Shown here: positions 21,487 through 34,588 of the stretch, in pieces
How positions within the stretch are numbered: position 1 is the stretch's first letter
Layout of the letters: each line of letters begins with the position of its first letter
DNA from: Candidatus Methanoperedenaceae archaeon
GTDB lineage: Archaea; Halobacteriota; Methanosarcinia; Methanosarcinales; Methanoperedenaceae
Length of the DNA: 64,000 nt
Direction of reading: 5' to 3'
NCBI GenBank assembly: GCA_963753595.1
Contig: CAVWCX010000030.1
Location: 33,985-97,984, forward strand
Made by a program: the position numbers and the translations under genes
The notes under the pieces: generated by a model
Told to the model about the DNA's origin: nothing
Databases searched by the model: none
What the model saw: the letters and a program-made list of their open reading frames with translations, nothing else

Positions 21487-21623
21487 CACCGCAAAGTCAA
21501 ATATAAATCCCTGGTTCATAAATGACATGAAAAAAGCAACGAACTGGAACGAACTCCGGTTGCGTTGGTTCGTATGGAGTTCAATGTTAATTTTTTCATA
21601 CCAGAGCACAAAGTAATGCTAAG
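21487..21623. repeat. CGCAAAG-type periodic arm interrupted by miniature element copy A (21497-21604)
   Basis: caccgcaaag | tc...atgaaaaaagcaacgaac...ttttttcataccag | agcacaaag taatgctaag; reverse-complement homolog of 24850-24996. Confidence 0.7.
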
Positions 21624-21648
21624 ATTGTTTGAAATAAGGTTGATAAAC

Positions 21649-22440
21649 ATGACTAAAAAGGTTGAAATGAACGAATGGAATCCGGAACAGTATTTACAAT
21701 TTAGATCAGAAAGGACTCAGCCAGCTATTGATCTGGTTTCAAGAATAAATATTGCACATCCCAGATCAATAATCGATATCGGTTGCGGACCTGGAAATAG
21801 TACACAGATATTAGTGAATCGATGGCCGGATAGTGAGGTAGTCGGTTTGGATAACTCGACCGCAATGATCGAGAAAGCAAGACAGGATTATCCAGACCAA
21901 AAATGGATCGTTGCTAATGCAGAAAATATTGATCCGAATAGCAAATATGACCTTATTTTTTCCAATGCAACACTTCAATGGCTCCCTCATCACGAGACAC
22001 TTTTACCAGAATTATTTAATTGTGTAAATCCCGGAGGCGCCATTGCTGTACAGATACCCAAATTTAAGAATATGCCAATTAATGTGGCTATTGAGACTGT
22101 AGCAAATAAATGGATAAACTATACAAAAGGCTGCGAAGAACTTTTTACTCTTAAATATATGGATTTTTATTATGATATTCTCAATAAATTAGCGACAGGA
22201 GTTGAATTATGGGAAACTTCCTATTTTCATATTTTAAATTCCCAGGAATCTGTAATAGATTTTATCAGGACTACAGGACTGAAGCCATATCTTGATCGTC
22301 TGCCAACCGATGAAATGAGATATGGATTTGAGCAGGAAGTATTAACAGAGTGTAGAAAATATTATAAAGTACAATCTGATGGCAAGGTTTTATTTCCATT
22401 TGATAGAATGTTCTTTATCGGATATAAGGGTTTATTATGA
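21649..22440 (+). CDS. tam: Trans-aconitate 2-methyltransferase
   Basis: WNPEQYLQF..ERTQPA.DL, DIGCGPGNST, NATLQW, FPFDRMF. Confidence 0.85.
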   Translation: MTKKVEMNEWNPEQYLQFRSERTQPAIDLVSRINIAHPRSIIDIGCGPGNSTQILVNRWPDSEVVGLDNSTAMIEKARQDYPDQKWIVANAENIDPNSKYDLIFSNATLQWLPHHETLLPELFNCVNPGGAIAVQIPKFKNMPINVAIETVANKWINYTKGCEELFTLKYMDFYYDILNKLATGVELWETSYFHILNSQESVIDFIRTTGLKPYLDRLPTDEMRYGFEQEVLTECRKYYKVQSDGKVLFPFDRMFFIGYKGLL

Positions 22441-23243
22441 AAAATATGAATAAGATATCTAAAAAGAAATTGGTTTTCATTGCACTGCTGGCAATTTTTG
22501 CAATAATCGTACTGGCATGGCTGGCCCCTTTGCAAAGAACTGCAGGGGTACGAATTGGTTTTAGCGTTGGTAGTTCTCAGGGAGCAACAGAAAACAACAC
22601 CGAAATTGAAATTGTAAAGGTGCATGGAGAATTCTTTAATGAGGGAGATATAATTGCAAAAAATCTGACTGCTACGGTAATATTTACAGATGATGCCCAC
22701 AATAAAGTTGTCAGGAAAACTGTGAAAGAAGGAGTGGATCTGCTCCCGAACAAAAGGTTAATAGTAGAATTTGATTCAGAATATTCAAGAGAGAAGACCA
22801 TACCGAAAACATATGTCAACGTTACCGTTCAGTTCGATTATATGGAAAACGGGATTTTAAAAACAACGAGCGATGAACCAGATTCTTCAGACAAGGGGAA
22901 TAATAACACTGGCAAATTAATTTATGGCAACGCTACTGTTGAGAGTATTGAAATGATGGCCCTTGAATCATTTCCCGTTCAGATAAAAGTCAACGCTAAT
23001 GGCTATCTGCCTGATGGCTGCACCAAAATAGACGAAATCAAGGAAGAAAAAAAGGATAACACCTTTTTAGTCATCATTAAAACAGTTCGACCTGCGGATA
23101 TATTTTGCACTGAGGTTATAGTGCCCTTCCAGGAAGTGATTTCGCTTGACGTTTATGGATTGAAAGCTGGAGAATATAATGTCGATGTCAACGGTATAAA
23201 AGGAAAATTCGAATTAGGAACAGATAATATCATCCGGGAATAA
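22437..23243 (+). CDS. Membrane-anchored/secreted hypothetical protein
   Basis: N-terminal TM; C-terminal ESFPVQ..GYLPDGC..CTEVIVPF two-Cys domain. Confidence 0.65.
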   Translation: MKNMNKISKKKLVFIALLAIFAIIVLAWLAPLQRTAGVRIGFSVGSSQGATENNTEIEIVKVHGEFFNEGDIIAKNLTATVIFTDDAHNKVVRKTVKEGVDLLPNKRLIVEFDSEYSREKTIPKTYVNVTVQFDYMENGILKTTSDEPDSSDKGNNNTGKLIYGNATVESIEMMALESFPVQIKVNANGYLPDGCTKIDEIKEEKKDNTFLVIIKTVRPADIFCTEVIVPFQEVISLDVYGLKAGEYNVDVNGIKGKFELGTDNIIRE

Positions 23244-23287
23244 TATCTAAATTTGAATTGTAAGTATATTGCAAAATTTAAGAAGAG

Positions 23288-24031
23288 ATGAGTATGGATA
23301 AAAATAATAATATCCAGCAACACTATGATCAGTTGCTTGCCAGGCAATATACATGGGTTTTTGGTGATGTTCAATCAAGAGTCGAGGAAAATAGAATATT
23401 GTTTCATTCTTTGGGATTGGGAAATGGGGCTGGCGCTCTTGCCGTCGATCTTGGCTGTGGGCCCGGTTATCATTCCCTGGCATTGAGCAACTTGGGATAT
23501 GAAGTCGTGGCAGTCGATTCATCGCAAGCCTTGCTGAATGAGCTGGTAAGTCATGATGATAGCAAAAGGATAAAGACGGTACGTGCGGATATTCGCAAGA
23601 TCCGTGATATTGTTGGTTGTCAGGCAAATCTTGTGATTTGCATGGGGGATACTCTTTCTCTTCTGGATTCATATTTGGATCTAACAAAACTTTTAAAGGA
23701 TGTTCGCCAATGTTTATCCGGGAAAGGACTTTTGATTCTTTCATTTCGCGACCAGACTCGCGCATTGGAAGGGATTGACCGGATATTGCCGATCAAGAGT
23801 GAACGGGATAGAGTATTTACCTGTTTACTGGAGTATGAAAAAGACAAGATTGAAGTAACTGATATCCTGTATAAGTTTGCTGACAGGAAATGGAGCCTTG
23901 AGAAGAGTTCTTATAAAAAGATCCGGATTTTTTCTGAAAAACTGGAAGCCATCATTTGTGACGTTGGTTTTAAGATAATACGGAAAGATGAAAATATTGG
24001 GTTTGTGACATTGTTCATGGAAAGGGAATAG
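23288..24031 (+). CDS. Class I SAM-dependent methyltransferase
   Basis: VDLGCGPG, AVDSS, CMGDTL. Confidence 0.85.
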   Translation: MSMDKNNNIQQHYDQLLARQYTWVFGDVQSRVEENRILFHSLGLGNGAGALAVDLGCGPGYHSLALSNLGYEVVAVDSSQALLNELVSHDDSKRIKTVRADIRKIRDIVGCQANLVICMGDTLSLLDSYLDLTKLLKDVRQCLSGKGLLILSFRDQTRALEGIDRILPIKSERDRVFTCLLEYEKDKIEVTDILYKFADRKWSLEKSSYKKIRIFSEKLEAIICDVGFKIIRKDENIGFVTLFMERE

Positions 24032-24094
24032 TGATGTGTGAAACCCTGGAAAATACAAAAAACCTTATGGGCTCCATAGTTAATTGAAATTAAT

Positions 24095-24763
24095 ATGGCA
24101 ACGCTTGATCCTACCTACTGGGGCTTTTTCGTATTCGGCATTCTTGCGGGCCTTTGCCCCTGCAATACCGTGCTTTGTCTGGCGCTCATAGGCTCGGTGG
24201 CAGGCGATGGTGCGGTTCGATACCCATTTCGGGATTCACTAAGGCTGACCCTGCCGTTTGGCATAGGCACGCTGCTCATTCTTACTCCTCTTGGAGGCAT
24301 CGTTGCGTACATTGGGAAAAGCGTAGTACTGTTCAATGCATCTATAGCGTATGCATCCGGTGGTGCCGTGATGCTAATAATGGCACTCCAGCTTTTTGGC
24401 GTTTATCATTTGCCTGTTCGGGATATTTTTATGCGTTTACGTCTGCCGGCATCATTCACTCCTATGGGAACATTCCTGCTTGGCGTTTCATTCGGGGCTA
24501 TTACCATTGGGAGAGTGGCTCCAATGCTCTTTTCCGTGCTTGCAGTTGCAGCATTATCAGGTTCGGTTGTATATGGCGTTACTGTATCGTTCCTTTTCGG
24601 GATAGGCATGATGCTGCCCCTTGTAATCATAAGTTCCATCGGTGGTGCAACAGGTAAAACCGTTCGTGGAAAGCTTAAAGATGGAGGCATATTGCTTGAT
24701 CGTATCCTTGGTATAATTATGGTTTTTGCAGCAGGATATTTCTTCTATATGGCAATGAAATAA
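24095..24763 (+). CDS. CcdA/DsbD-like transmembrane protein
   Basis: GILAGLCPC first Cys-Pro motif, about 6 TM, FGIGMMLP. Confidence 0.7.
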   Translation: MATLDPTYWGFFVFGILAGLCPCNTVLCLALIGSVAGDGAVRYPFRDSLRLTLPFGIGTLLILTPLGGIVAYIGKSVVLFNASIAYASGGAVMLIMALQLFGVYHLPVRDIFMRLRLPASFTPMGTFLLGVSFGAITIGRVAPMLFSVLAVAALSGSVVYGVTVSFLFGIGMMLPLVIISSIGGATGKTVRGKLKDGGILLDRILGIIMVFAAGYFFYMAMK

Positions 24764-24788
24764 CAATTTATATATATATATATTTAAA

Positions 24789-24996
24789 CACCGCAAAGGG
24801 CGAAAAGTACGCAAGGAACGATTTTCCTAACCTTTGCGCCCCTTGCGTTCTGGTATGAAAAAACAACGAACTAATACGAACTGAAACGAACTCAAGCTAC
24901 CAGAGTTCGTTCGTGTTCGTTTATGTTCGTTTATGTTCGTTGTTTTTTTTCATTTTTATTTATGAATCGGGAGGATTCATGGCCGACTTTGCGGTG
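24789..24996. repeat. 3+3 unit 9-bp-period CGCAAAG hairpin interrupted by miniature element copy B (24850-24986)
   Basis: caccgcaaag ggcgaaaag tacgcaagg / ctttgcgcc ccttgcgtt [insert] ctttgcggtg; the insert carries its own ACGAACT/GTTCGT hairpin. Confidence 0.8.
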
Positions 24997-25039
24997 AGTC
25001 CTTGAATAAGAAGCTACCTGGTAATTCAAGTTCAATGAG

Positions 25040-25726
25040 TTATGGGCTCTTGCCAGCTTGATTCGTGATCCGGTTCCTATCGACCCAAAAAGCAATAACA
25101 ACAAGCCCGATCTGGCCTGCTGTCATAGTGAGGGCGACAGAAATCATGTCCGGTGGAGGGGGGCTGAAGATATTGCCAATAAAAAGGACCATCAGGATCA
25201 ATACCATAATGGCAAGCCCATATTTTCCCGGCGATGAAACACTATGGGTCACGCTCCTGTAAAGATAAATCCCTATAAACAAAAGTCCAATTTCTACGAT
25301 CATTGTACCTGCAAGGCTGTTCCAGAGAGATAAACCAAGTATGGGAGAATTTTTTCCAGAGATCGTCATATCAGGTGTATGTGAGATTACATCCAGAATA
25401 AAATGCGAGAAGATCGCAATTGCGAGTATGAATGCCGGCCGCTTCCTTTGCGAGCGAACCCCTGTTGGCCAGAGCCAATATACCAGAAAACCGGCTGTTG
25501 CCCACACAAATGCACCCAATGCGCTGTGGCTCAGGGGATAATCGTAGAATTCAAATGGTGATACGACCGTGGCGCCGGGGACGATCTTTGCGTGCTCAAT
25601 CCCGAAAAGCAAAAAGAGCCCAAACAGGATGTCAAGTATGATCGCACCGAAAAGCAGCAGACCAAGTGATAATCTTGGCTCCACCTTTTTGAGTGCAAGT
25701 CCGATGCCATAGTGACCGATAAACAT
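25040..25726 (-). CDS. Membrane-bound metal-dependent hydrolase-like protein
   Basis: MFIGH, SHS, SHFILD..SH, GLSLWN. Confidence 0.7.
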   Translation of the reverse strand: MFIGHYGIGLALKKVEPRLSLGLLLFGAIILDILFGLFLLFGIEHAKIVPGATVVSPFEFYDYPLSHSALGAFVWATAGFLVYWLWPTGVRSQRKRPAFILAIAIFSHFILDVISHTPDMTISGKNSPILGLSLWNSLAGTMIVEIGLLFIGIYLYRSVTHSVSSPGKYGLAIMVLILMVLFIGNIFSPPPPDMISVALTMTAGQIGLVVIAFWVDRNRITNQAGKSP

Positions 25727-25764
25727 TTTTTAACCTCGTTCGATATTTATGATGAGAGAAAAAC

Positions 25765-26000
25765 TCACCCGGCCTTTTTATTCTCTATCTCAACCAATTT
25801 GTTTATTCGTTCTTCTACAATATCCATCGAATCTTCAAACAATTTCCTGTTAATATCAATATTGAAGTATTTTTTAAGTTTCTCTTTCGGGGTAAGTGTA
25901 GTGCCTGCTGAAAGATATTCAATATAATTCTTGTTGAATTCTTCCGGATCATCCCTGTATTTTTTGAAAAGAGAAAGAGAAATTGCCTTTGAATTCGTTT
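25765..26000 (-). pseudogene. C-terminal remnant resembling oligoendopeptidase F (M3 family)
   Basis: SKAISLSLFKKY..FNKNYIEYLSAG..TP.E.L; no N-terminal part present. Confidence 0.5.
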
Positions 26001-26563
26001 CTTCAAAAACCCCCCTGCGTTTCAGTATCCAGCCTGCGCGCAAAAAAGGGAACCAACAGGTTAGTGGCTCGATGATGAAAATGTGCTCACCATCGAACAG
26101 GTATCAGTAAGTGCGCCAGTCCATTTCACGACCGGGGGGCATTATCAACGTGTTTTCCATTTGACCCTTACTAAGGGGTGCCAATTATACGTATGAATAG
26201 ACTTTTAAAAACTAAAATATCCATCACCGTACTTTTAAAAACTAAAATATCCATCATCGTACCTTTAAAAAACAAAATAAACTGAAATAATTGTCAGGAT
26301 ATTTATATTGTTTTAAGTCTTGTAAGGAAAGTGAGGAAGCCATTACCATACCTTTCCTATACCACAAGAAATGTACAATGTTTCTGGCCTCCTCTTTCTT
26401 TCATACACTCTAAGTCCCTGCCAGTTCTCATTATGTGCATGCCCTTTATTTGGATTTCTTTTATTTTTCTCCTTCCGCCCGCAGTTTGAGAGCTTGATTC
26501 ATAACTTCAAAACCCCTGCGTGTTTCAGTATCCAGACTGCGCGCAAAAAGGGGAACTAACAGG
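26001..26563. repeat. Direct repeat pair of about 58 bp (26001-26059 and 26504-26563)
   Basis: cttcaaaa(a)cccc..gtttcagtatccag.ctgcgcgcaaaaa(a)gggaac.aacagg in both; both are followed by ggctcgatgatga. Confidence 0.7.
26201..26280. repeat. 30-bp tandem repeat, two copies plus a partial third
   Basis: acttttaaaaactaaaatatccatca(c/t)cgt x2, then acctttaaaaaacaaaataa. Confidence 0.85.
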
Positions 26564-26649
26564 CCAGTAATGATTTCACGCTGTATAAATCGCACACCTC
26601 CAGCAACAAGCGGCTCGATGATGAGCAGCTAAAATTGCAGCATCCCATG

Positions 26650-26780
26650 GATGGATATAACTGTACGGAGATTGTTCTCATGGCGATGCAGGAAGCCGGA
26701 TATCCCCACAGCCTTTGGAACAGGGATCGGGAGACGGGACTGCGGTGCCGTAACCGGAGGGATAATTGCAATTATAGTTC
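26650..26780 (+). pseudogene. Fragment of a C-GCAxxG-C-C family redox protein
   Basis: GYNCTEIVLMAMQE and AFGTGIGRRDCGAVTGGIIA in different frames. Confidence 0.55.
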
Positions 26781-26878
26781 TCCGCATAACATCATTTTGG
26801 GATAGGGTGATCATTAATCCAAATTTTATTACTTTCACAATGCCCTATCTTAGCGTATAAAACCATGCAAACGAATTG

Positions 26879-27387
26879 GAACGCGGATGACGCGGATTGC
26901 GCGGATGCCCGCGGATCGAATTATCCTTATTCCAATAGAAGGAGATACAAAATGTTGTATTCAGAAATGACAGAAAAAATCATCAATTCGTTTTACAAAG
27001 TTTATAATGTATTGGGCTATGGCTTTCTGGAAAAAGTTTATGAAAATGCCCTGGTAATTGAATTAAAAAGTGCGGGTTTCAAGGTCTTACAGCAGCAAAA
27101 TATCAAAGTTTTCTATAAAAATCAGGTAGTTGGAGATTATTTCGCAGATATTATTGTGAATGACCTGATAATTTTAGAAATAAAAGCGTCTGAGGGTTTA
27201 AGGGATGAAAATAAGGCTCAGTTGATCAATTATCTAAAAGCTACCAATAAAACAAGTCGGGCTTTTGTTTAATTTTGGTAAAAAACCAGATTTCAATAGA
27301 GCAATCTTCTCGAATGATAGAAAGGAAATATCATATACAGAAGCCTCAAATCCGTGTGAATCCGCGCAATCCGCGTCATCCGCGTTC
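26879..27387. repeat. Perfect 28-bp inverted repeat of 9-bp CGCGGAT units bracketing the GxxExxY gene
   Basis: gaacgcggatgacgcggattgcgcggat (26879-26906) vs atccgcgcaatccgcgtcatccgcgttc (27360-27387); imperfect extension to about 50 bp. Confidence 0.92.
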
Positions 27388-27402
27388 TATTCGTCTGGAT
27401 GA
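26952..27402 (+). CDS. GxxExxY family PD-(D/E)XK nuclease, frameshifted at AAAA 27249-27252
   Basis: RBS AAGGAG; LGYGFLEKVYENAL, ADIIV..LEIKA, AQLINYLKAT; the other frame continues VGLLFNFGKKP to TGA at 27402. Confidence 0.85.
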
Positions 27403-27530
27403 ATACTATTCTTTAAATCCCGGACAACCATGCAAATAACTCAACCCATCCTGCTGTAACAAACACCGATGCTGACTTCTGCGCAGTATTTTGACGGATA
27501 TTCCAGCCTTTGTCTGGACAGGCAATTTCT

Positions 27531-27678
27531 AAACAACGAACTAAAACGAACTGCAACGAACTCAAAGCAATCAGAGTTCGTATTGAGTTCGTCGGAGTTC
27601 GGTGTTAATTTTTTTCATACCAGCTCACGGAGGAAATAGAGCAACGTTGACTCTGTGATTTCTGAGGCATCTGTAGTT
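27531..27678. repeat. Miniature element copy C (27531-27623, one end truncated) abutting a CACAGAG-type periodic hairpin (27624-27678)
   Basis: acgaact x3 / gagttcg x3, ending ttttcataccag; then ctcacggag gaaatagag / ctctgtgat ttctgaggc atctgtagtt. Confidence 0.72.
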
Positions 27679-33868: not shown

Positions 33869-34588
33869 TCAGGGATACGAAGGAATAGACTTCTTGCAGT
33901 AATATACTGCAGAAAAATCATCCTTATGTCGAATTTCAAATTCAAATCCTGATTTATTGAGCATTTCCTCTATAATCCAATCGAAGGTTGAATATTCTTC
34001 CTTAATATGCATTTGCGCTTCCTCTGCAAAATTTATTCCAACTTTTTCTTTTAAGGTATCAATCCAATTGTCGATTTTATAGTCATATTCTTCAATCGGA
34101 AATGAAAAAACGACATCACCTAAATAAAAAGTCCCGCCATTCTTAAGCATATTATAAATTCTTTTTAGAGCGATCATTTTCCAGAAGTCCGGCAAATGAT
34201 GCAAAGCAAGATTCGAAACGATCATATCCAGAGGAGCTCCGTTATGCTCATAGCTTAAAAAACCCGCCTGGAAAAATGAAATATTGCTCATCCCCATTTT
34301 TTGTGCTTTTTGTTTTGCATAAGCTATCATTGTGGATGAAACATCAATAGCATAAACCTTATTACAATTCTTTGCTGCTTCAATTGCAAAATTACCTGTT
34401 CCCGTACCAATTTCAAGTAATGAATGTTCTTCCCCCAGGCATATGGCTTTAATTATATCAGTTGCTTCTTTTTTAGCATCCCTGAATTTTGCCATCTGCA
34501 TATCATATGCCTGGACATTCGAAATATCCTGATAATCTGTGCCAACTTGTACTGCTTCATCATAGAACCATTTCATATTTGATTTCAT
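33869..34588 (-). CDS. Class I SAM-dependent methyltransferase
   Basis: LEIGTGTG, AIDVS, LALHHLPDFWK. Confidence 0.88.
   Translation of the reverse strand: MKSNMKWFYDEAVQVGTDYQDISNVQAYDMQMAKFRDAKKEATDIIKAICLGEEHSLLEIGTGTGNFAIEAAKNCNKVYAIDVSSTMIAYAKQKAQKMGMSNISFFQAGFLSYEHNGAPLDMIVSNLALHHLPDFWKMIALKRIYNMLKNGGTFYLGDVVFSFPIEEYDYKIDNWIDTLKEKVGINFAEEAQMHIKEEYSTFDWIIEEMLNKSGFEFEIRHKDDFSAVYYCKKSIPSYP

Follow-up and report, generated by a model that had tools for sequence, protein, structure and literature searches.

A gene-less miniature element, probably derived from an IS110-family insertion sequence, in the periodic hairpins of a Candidatus Methanoperedenaceae archaeon

The DNA considered here is a stretch of 64,000 nucleotides (the window) from a Candidatus Methanoperedenaceae archaeon, comprising positions 33,985 to 97,984 of contig CAVWCX010000030.1 in assembly GCA_963753595.1. 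The assembly, labelled G000, consists of 2.89 Mb in 37 contigs and is 92% complete; G denotes a genome, C a contig and L a locus from relatives, and the window is C30:33985-97984. Between window positions 21,487 and 27,659 lie three copies (A, B and C) of a miniature element, here called the mini, which is about 125 bases long and carries no gene. The copies are found in or beside the short repeated units of hairpins with inverted arms of 9-10-base units (periodic-arm hairpins). All three copies had been described in a first-pass annotation made from the sequence alone, and the coordinates given there were correct. The features, in window positions, are as follows.

21487-21496, plus strand: left target unit of copy A, CACCGCAAAG, with the AG core at its end; it recurs at six aligned copies
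21497-21604, plus strand (the orientation of the parent insertion sequence described below): copy A, 108 bp, matching profile positions 1-120 with 56 bits
21605-21613, plus strand: right target unit of copy A, AGCACAAAG, counted as a unit when one mismatch is allowed
24789-24849, no strand assigned: CGCAAAG-type host hairpin of copy B, with its 5' arm at 24789-24816, a loop, and 3' arm units at 24832-24840 and 24841-24849
24850-24986, minus strand: copy B, 137 bp, one of five young copies
24987-24996, no strand assigned: terminal unit of the host hairpin, CTTTGCGGTG, which copy B separates from the other units of its arm
27531-27623, plus strand: copy C, truncated, matching profile positions 1-88, with the right end ..TTTTTTTCATACCAG present and the left-end region absent
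27624-27659, no strand assigned: degenerate CACAGAG-type hairpin adjoining copy C, CTCACGGAG GAAATAGAG / CTCTGTGAT

Copy B begins with CTGGTATGAAAAAA, ends with GGCCGA, and is flanked by CCTTGCGTT and CTTTGCGGTG. When it is removed in silico, a regular hairpin of three plus three units is restored, CACCGCAAAG GGCGAAAAG TACGCAAGG / CTTTGCGCC CCTTGCGTT CTTTGCGGTG, as the first-pass annotation had stated. Copy A has the opposite orientation (in the parent orientation, left end TCAAAT.. and right end ..TTTTTTCATACCAG), and it has diverged in the left-end region. It does lie between a first unit and the next, as annotated, but its host is a one-armed run of units and not a full hairpin. Copy C retains the CTGGTATG end and has lost the other; the different-sequence hairpin said to adjoin it is the degenerate one at 27624-27659. 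The same truncated form is found in the relative G042, where locus L063 is collinear with C30:61336-63137.

The mini has a core hairpin of three plus three 10-base ACGAACT units, and single-strand folding is more stable than in shuffled controls for copy B (z = -7.5), copy A (-3.2), copy C (-5.0) and a typical copy (-5.9). In the predicted fold, a 5-base tail is followed by a long hairpin that ATGAAAAAA/TTTTTTCAT closes, then by a small hairpin whose stem is ATGAAC/GTTCAT, and lastly by a tail of 6 bases. Compensating changes preserve the small end hairpin (AACC/GGTT versus AATC/GATT), and the parts of the element that are conserved across the genus are its two ends. We found no Rfam family that matches the mini, the periodic hairpins or the insertion sequence (IS) leaders discussed below.

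A profile built from 11 copies and searched against the genome identified 44 separate loci (best E about 1e-35), 17 of them full length. About 12 of the 44 match only the hairpin portion of the profile, with decayed end sequences still in place. The family is present in 17 of 18 genomes of the same genus and in none of 12 genomes from other genera of the order. The copies at C10:126-252, C2:34225-34351, C5:14694-14820 and C24:42421-42547 are mutually 99-100% identical. Copy B is 92-93% identical to these four siblings because its hairpin has one extra 10-base GTTCGTTTAT unit, which, between otherwise near-identical copies, implies that the number of units changes fast. Copy C and five further copies are common to G000 and G042 and are therefore old. 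Beyond the broken ends of the truncated copies on C22, C34 and C27, ordinary genes come next and there is no long element. At C1:45205-45271, in the arm of a CACAGAG hairpin, the string CTGGTATGGCCGA equals the first 8 and last 5 bases of the element with nothing between them, and it may be a copy shrunk by internal deletion.

The flanks of the copies show a consistent pattern. A junction was scored as adjoining a hairpin unit when the neighbouring nine bases matched CTTTGCGnn or CTCTGTGnn, one mismatch being allowed, a match met by 0.19% of 200,000 random 7-mers. Such a unit adjoins 22 of the 24 left junctions with a recognisable CTGGTATG end (exceptions, C19:74673 and C30:11512) and 19 of the 22 right junctions with a GGCCGA-type end, where it is mostly CTTTGCGGTG (exceptions, C36:538, C27:48210 and C24:111039). 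Random flanks, which the first-pass annotation had named as the result that would speak against insertion into hairpins, are thus not what is found. CT (AG on the other strand) occurs at both junctions and is the only base repeat there, and the element has no terminal inverted repeats; both points had been noted previously and hold. Comparison of the empty site, CTTTGCGTA CTTTGCGGTG, with the filled one, in which CTGG..CCGA lies directly between CTTTGCGTA and CTTTGCGGTG, reveals no target duplication beyond the core dinucleotide. A subfamily with a slightly different end occupies CACAGAG-type arms (C4:50263, C1:62118, C27:48210 and C4:42370).

Runs of the CGCAAAG units are directional, with CACCGCAAAG first on one strand, and are paired either tail-to-tail or head-to-head. 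Whichever way the runs face, the element always sits between the first unit, CACCGCAAAG, and the next; on the other strand this places it directly before the terminal unit of the run, CTTTGCGGTG, which is identical in all six aligned copies. In tail-to-tail hairpins the terminal unit lies outermost, in head-to-head hairpins innermost. Since the site is constant in both builds, the register must be determined by the sequence of one strand and not by the place in the hairpin. The fixed register proposed in the first-pass annotation therefore stands, in that the same junction is used every time, whereas the proposal that the element is targeted to a structure does not.

Uninterrupted sites are also present. 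In seven uninterrupted CGCAAAG hairpins the site is contiguous, with nn followed directly by CTTTGCGGTG. The clearest comparison comes from C33:54585-54880 and C36:82915-83215, which are two paralogous copies of a DDE-type miniature inverted-repeat transposable element (MITE) containing the same head-to-head hairpin with the loop in the same orientation. The C33 paralogue has a mini in the left arm, between CTTTGCGTA and CTTTGCGGTG, and an intact right arm; the C36 paralogue has an inverted mini in the right arm, between ACTGCAAAG and GGCGCAAAG, and an intact left arm. The two minis, which are 96% alike, are in opposite arms of paralogous hairpins, and each hairpin therefore represents the empty site of the other. 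An 8-bp duplication (GAAAAATC) borders the C33 MITE copy, and the orthologous site in G042 lacks this copy. The ends of this MITE are those of a 1.3-kb DDE-type IS (GTGGGTGYAAAATCT.. and ..ACTTTTTGACAGCCCC; copies at C6:45378-46699, C1:33000-34321 and C28:51957-53278), and the MITE holds a CGCAAAG hairpin. Flanks have been exchanged between the copies of the 1.3-kb IS on C6 and C28, as after an inversion between these two.

Comparison across genomes is more limited. In G044 the hairpin at the locus orthologous to that of the C24 copy is of the CACAGAG type and intact; in G008, AACCACAGAG is followed there directly by an element end. At the B and C24 loci neither the hairpin nor the element is present in the closest relatives, and these loci are therefore uninformative on insertion. 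Orthologous sites are about 80-93% identical, with spacers mostly replaced by other hairpin families, and the C2, C5, C33:49073 and C4 loci are not collinear with those of relatives. A clean empty hairpin was not found in related genomes at the B and C24 loci or in the L051 and L054 comparisons. Among public reads, the best run contained 0.13 of the sampled words and none of the runs listed was of RNA; four runs yielded short contigs of relatives and repeat cross-matches, and no empty or filled allele of the same strain. The host hairpins of the young copies differ in architecture and sequence. The first-pass annotation had regarded a lack of empty hairpins as evidence against its proposal, and empty sites do exist.

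The ends of the mini recur on a longer element. In contig C76 of G042, a 1673-bp IS110-family element lies between AACCACAGAG and TACACAGAG, beginning with TCAGCTATGAACTGCGGTTCATAAATGAACATGAAAAAATTAA and ending with TTTTTTTTCATACCAG, and contains an open reading frame for a 412-residue recombinase of the DEDD type (PF01548, 2.9e-24; PF02371, 9.1e-24). Read on the opposite strand, its ends are the GGCCGA end of the mini with the small hairpin and the CTGGTATGAAAAAA end of the mini. Two G000 copies (C4:50263 and C36:83018) agree with the ends of this element at 35 of 40 and 17-18 of 20 bases. The mini would retain about 40 bases of the left end of this putative parent (TCGGCC, the small ATGAAC..GTTCAT hairpin and ATGAAAAAA) and about 20-25 bases of the right end (..TTTTTTTCATACCAG), with the ACGAACT-unit hairpin filling the middle. 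The insertion junction of the parent is the same as that of the mini, namely a first unit ending in AG, the element, and the next unit. Longer copies with the same ends enclosing a recombinase, which the first-pass annotation had suggested looking for, thus exist in other genomes of the genus. Its suggestion of a non-autonomous, IS110-like element mobilised in trans is supported in that a relative with shared ends and a CT core exists in the genus, although the assembly itself has no intact parent.

Parent protein matches occur in 16 of 49 genus genomes. Twelve distinct loci of the parent lineage have at least one end that could be located: seven adjoin CACAGAG units, three adjoin CGCAAAG units (G031:C11, G011:C126 and G013:C45), one is within another IS110 and one is elsewhere. 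Ten of the 12 therefore adjoin the same unit types in the same register as the mini. Both the parent and the mini comprise two sublineages, one for each hairpin family. The CTGGTATGAAAAAA string found at L092 is the right end of a parent-lineage IS lying in another IS110. At L163 (G048:C224:326-4403), a parent-lineage copy has inserted into the leader of an IS110 element belonging to a third group, and the guide 7-mers of the inserted copy fit that site without mismatch.

The leader of the parent contains two short segments that correspond to the flanking targets. The 7-mer preceding TCTGGT equals the left target including AG, and follows three target classes: it reads CACAGAG in five copies whose left flank is CCACAGAG, CCACGAG in L163, which is flanked by CCCACGAG, and CGCAAAG in L166 and L154, both located in CGCAAAG arms. 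The 7-mer following GACCAAT, read as its reverse complement, gives AG and then five bases of the right target. It fits at all seven positions in L163 and L166, with GTAATCT for ATTAC and GCGTGCT for CACGC, and at 5-6 of 7 in the other copies, including the CACAGAG copies. In the G011 copy, GCGCCCT encodes GGCGC, and CGCAAAG followed directly by GGCGC is the site that holds the young G000 copies on C10 and C2. The putative guide 7-mers of the leader change with the flanking target as the guides of bridge RNAs do. The leader also contains ATACCAG, which represents the right end plus the core. In G000, the sole match of a donor-guide search falls within a coding region. Its consensus fold has a 15-bp closing stem, and the loops holding the guides are not fixed by the fold.

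These observations make it likely that the mini is a gene-less derivative of this IS110-family IS of the genus, that it enters the junctions between hairpin units, and that it is moved by the enzyme of its parent. The leader would be transcribed as a bridge RNA, and the parent DEDD recombinase with this RNA would recognise the ends of the mini as donor. The target would be a first unit ending in AG followed directly by the next unit, that is, CACCGCAAAG then nnCGCAAAG, or AACCACAGAG then nnCACAGAG, and donor and target would be recombined at the AG (CT) dinucleotide. Movement may proceed by way of a circle, with the predicted circle junction ..CATACCAG joined to TCGGCC... An element that has no gene but has ends of the parent type would thus be moved in trans and reach the same register each time. 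It could enter either arm because the hairpin has the target on both strands.

Several observations weigh against this derivation. We found no segment in the parent leader complementary to the core plus the left end. The order of the two target 7-mers along the leader is reversed relative to IS621. Two bases beside the core on one side vary among the insertions, so that recognition there must be loose. In the young B-type copies the small left-end hairpin is changed, and only 17 of 40 bases agree with the G042 parent without gaps. An intact parent was not found in G000; the only trace, at C3:56995-58000, has one TGA and one TAA in C3:56995-57768, although at 92% completeness of the assembly the absence of a parent is not established. 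The four copies that are 99-100% identical are found in an assembly with no live parent.

The same arrangement could be read as a mosaic repeat, in which element and flanking units together make up a single composite that spreads or is lost as a block, the insertion being only apparent; the bacterial interspersed mosaic elements (BIMEs) of enterobacteria are a parallel. The joint absence of hairpin and element from the closest relatives at the B and C24 loci, where no empty allele is seen, fits such a composite, as do the unvarying CTTTGCGGTG unit of the six aligned copies and the minis of the MITE paralogues, which are, by eye, about as alike as their hosts. We nevertheless consider a mosaic very improbable: in the MITE paralogues the minis occupy opposite arms in opposite orientations while the loop is not flipped, and the hairpins of the young copies vary in the number of units, in spacer bases and loop, and in being built head-to-head or tail-to-tail. 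In addition, the C24-locus orthologue is uninterrupted in G044 and shows the first unit and then the element end in G008, and a full-length IS occupies the same junction. A further possibility is that the mini is no more than a periodic hairpin without a gene, from the class that elsewhere carries GxxExxY genes (see below), moved by that class's own mechanism, with its likeness to IS110 ends being secondary. Its three plus three ACGAACT core does resemble in build the genome's CGCGGAT, ACAGGAT, CACAGAG and CGCAAAG hairpins, these hairpins nest in one another, and about 12 of the 44 loci match the hairpin portion only. Those hairpin-only loci nonetheless retain decayed end sequences, no gene-bearing ACGAACT-armed copy was found in the genome, and the parts conserved across the genus are the two ends, which are those of an IS110 element; this origin is accordingly improbable.

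A different enzyme altogether would be required if the mini moved as a single strand by a HUH Y1 transposase of the IS200/IS605 or RAYT type, with two hairpins having ATGAA/TTCAT feet recognised on one strand and insertion 3' of CAAAG. Such a mechanism would suit an element with no inverted ends, no target duplication, a target that is conserved and strand-specific on one side, and a small end hairpin preserved by compensating changes. The genome has three Y1 matches (PF01797), but they cover the model only partially, one has two internal stops, and none is flanked by these repeats. There are also seven TnpB-type matches above the Pfam cut-off and one below it, but the ends of these elements are unrelated to those of the mini. 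Given further that both ends of the mini are the ends of an IS110-family element, and that the same dinucleotide is present at both junctions, as in core-based recombination, single-strand transposition is extremely improbable. No match to PF00239, which would indicate a serine recombinase or resolvase-type gene, was found in the genome.

G000 also contains an intact IS110-family element of another lineage. It is located at C18:29769-31504, between two units in the 3' arm of a CACAGAG hairpin, and encodes a protein of 402 residues with PF01548 and PF02371. Its ends (CGTATATAC.. and ..TAATAGTACG) are unlike those of the mini, and we therefore rejected this lineage as the parent. The ends also differ in a third group of IS110 elements, which shares 37% identity with the C18 lineage. 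Twelve relatives of the C18 element in other genus genomes (L071-L087) adjoin CTCTGTG, ATCCTGT or ATCTGCG units. In their leaders, one segment repeats the left target together with TT, and a 7-mer corresponds, as reverse complement, to TT and the five bases with which the right target begins; this 7-mer is exact in seven of the nine copies whose right flank is known. A search with this leader pattern gave 45 copies, spread over 21 of the 49 genus genomes, and 11 different right-guide 7-mers among them. The C18 lineage shows that IS110 elements of this genus aim at periodic hairpins. A search of the IS loci for 8-mer junction words was too noisy for use. It is possible, if rather doubtful, that the IS110 elements of the genus and their minis have become specialised as parasites of periodic-arm hairpins, rewriting their guide 7-mers to keep pace with them; the variety of 7-mers in the C18 lineage and the three guide types of the parent lineage would fit this. 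On that reading, the enzyme and RNA behind the young burst would have come from an extrachromosomal element or a recently lost parent.

The periodic-arm hairpins are the hosts, and the mini is a second, unrelated mobile element landing in their arms. The window contains a further member of the host class, which is context and not part of the mini.

26879-27387, plus strand: dead GxxExxY nuclease cassette, with arms of four CGCGGAT units at 26879-26916 and 27350-27387 and the gene at 26952-27272

The Pfam match of this gene (PF13366, TIGR04256) spans two TAA stops. A paralogous dead cassette at C2:122570-122950 also lies between inverted arms of four CGCGGAT units, and an ACAGGAT-armed copy contains a further GxxExxY remnant (read by eye). 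Of the three GxxExxY remnants of the genome, one contains two stops, another is interrupted by a stop and the third covers half the model. The window cassette shows that the periodic hairpins here are a class tied to the GxxExxY gene. In the accessible text of the literature searched, we found no paper on periodic-arm hairpins with GxxExxY cassettes. Just upstream of the window cassette are a 60-base direct repeat (26006-26065 and 26509-26568, 85% alike and 503 bases apart) and a 30-base tandem pair (26201-26260).

Nesting of hairpins is seen elsewhere in the genome. CACAGAG hairpins lie within three ACAGGAT-armed cassettes (C24:15445, C27:10658 and C27:102253); at C23:90030-90300 and C34:100500-100900 there are, respectively, a CACAGAG hairpin within a CGCGGAT hairpin and an ACAGGAT cassette with CGCAAAG units and a mini. 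Two TnpB-only elements (C37:~75975 and C7:~135090) have a unit-like CTTTGCGC or CTTTGTGC directly at the left end.

REPIN/RAYT systems are intergenic hairpin repeats that multiply within a lineage by means of one enzyme gene per genome, the RAYT being a HUH enzyme of the Y1 type with its own repeats on either side. The mini resembles them in being a hairpin-forming intergenic repeat that multiplies at the level of the lineage; it differs in its association with an IS110 recombinase and in parasitising another repeat family instead of being the repeat itself.

A closer precedent is MITEPpu9 of Pseudomonas putida KT2440, a gene-less module with the left and right boxes of ISPpu9 and recombination at an invariant AG. 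It is described as having eight copies, mostly beside the IS, and as including a small RNA gene; circles of ISPpu9 were shown, and use of the enzyme in trans was proposed (PMC12288879). On that description, the archaeal mini is likewise gene-less, has the ends of its parent, lies apart from the transposase gene and in palindromic repeats, and has an AG core. Unlike MITEPpu9, it belongs to an archaeal genus, has 44 loci per genome, is filled by a periodic hairpin, and has no intact parent in the assembly; moreover, circles of the mini are predicted, whereas those of ISPpu9 were shown. MITEPpu9/ISPpu9 was the only system found in the accessible text of the literature searched on IS110, MITEs and bridge RNA (PMC12288879). 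A corresponding search for IS110 in Methanoperedens gave, in the text accessible, a match that concerns arsenite oxidation in bacteria only.

In IS621, as described in PMC11208160, the guide for the left target pairs with the bottom strand and the one for the right target with the top strand, both including the core, and a donor of 22 bp suffices when the RNA is supplied in trans. The parent lineage resembles IS621, on that account, in its DEDD recombinase, in leader segments that copy the left target and complement the right one, and in its hairpin-forming intergenic targets, all read here from the DNA. It differs in the reversed order of the leader segments and in its targets, which are unit junctions of periodic arms and not REP sequences.

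The putative IS110 derivative described here adds an abundant archaeal case to a type of element previously reported in bacteria. It would provide, in archaea, a natural example of an element of the IS110 type that has given rise to a miniature derivative in high copy number, and the hairpin-within-hairpin pattern of the window would be accounted for by a known mechanism. The parent lineage would also make available naturally retargeted pairs of recombinase and guide with known targets. For the hairpins themselves, the finding shows that the periodic-arm class provides landing pads for other mobile DNA, which matters for reading their copy number and structure.

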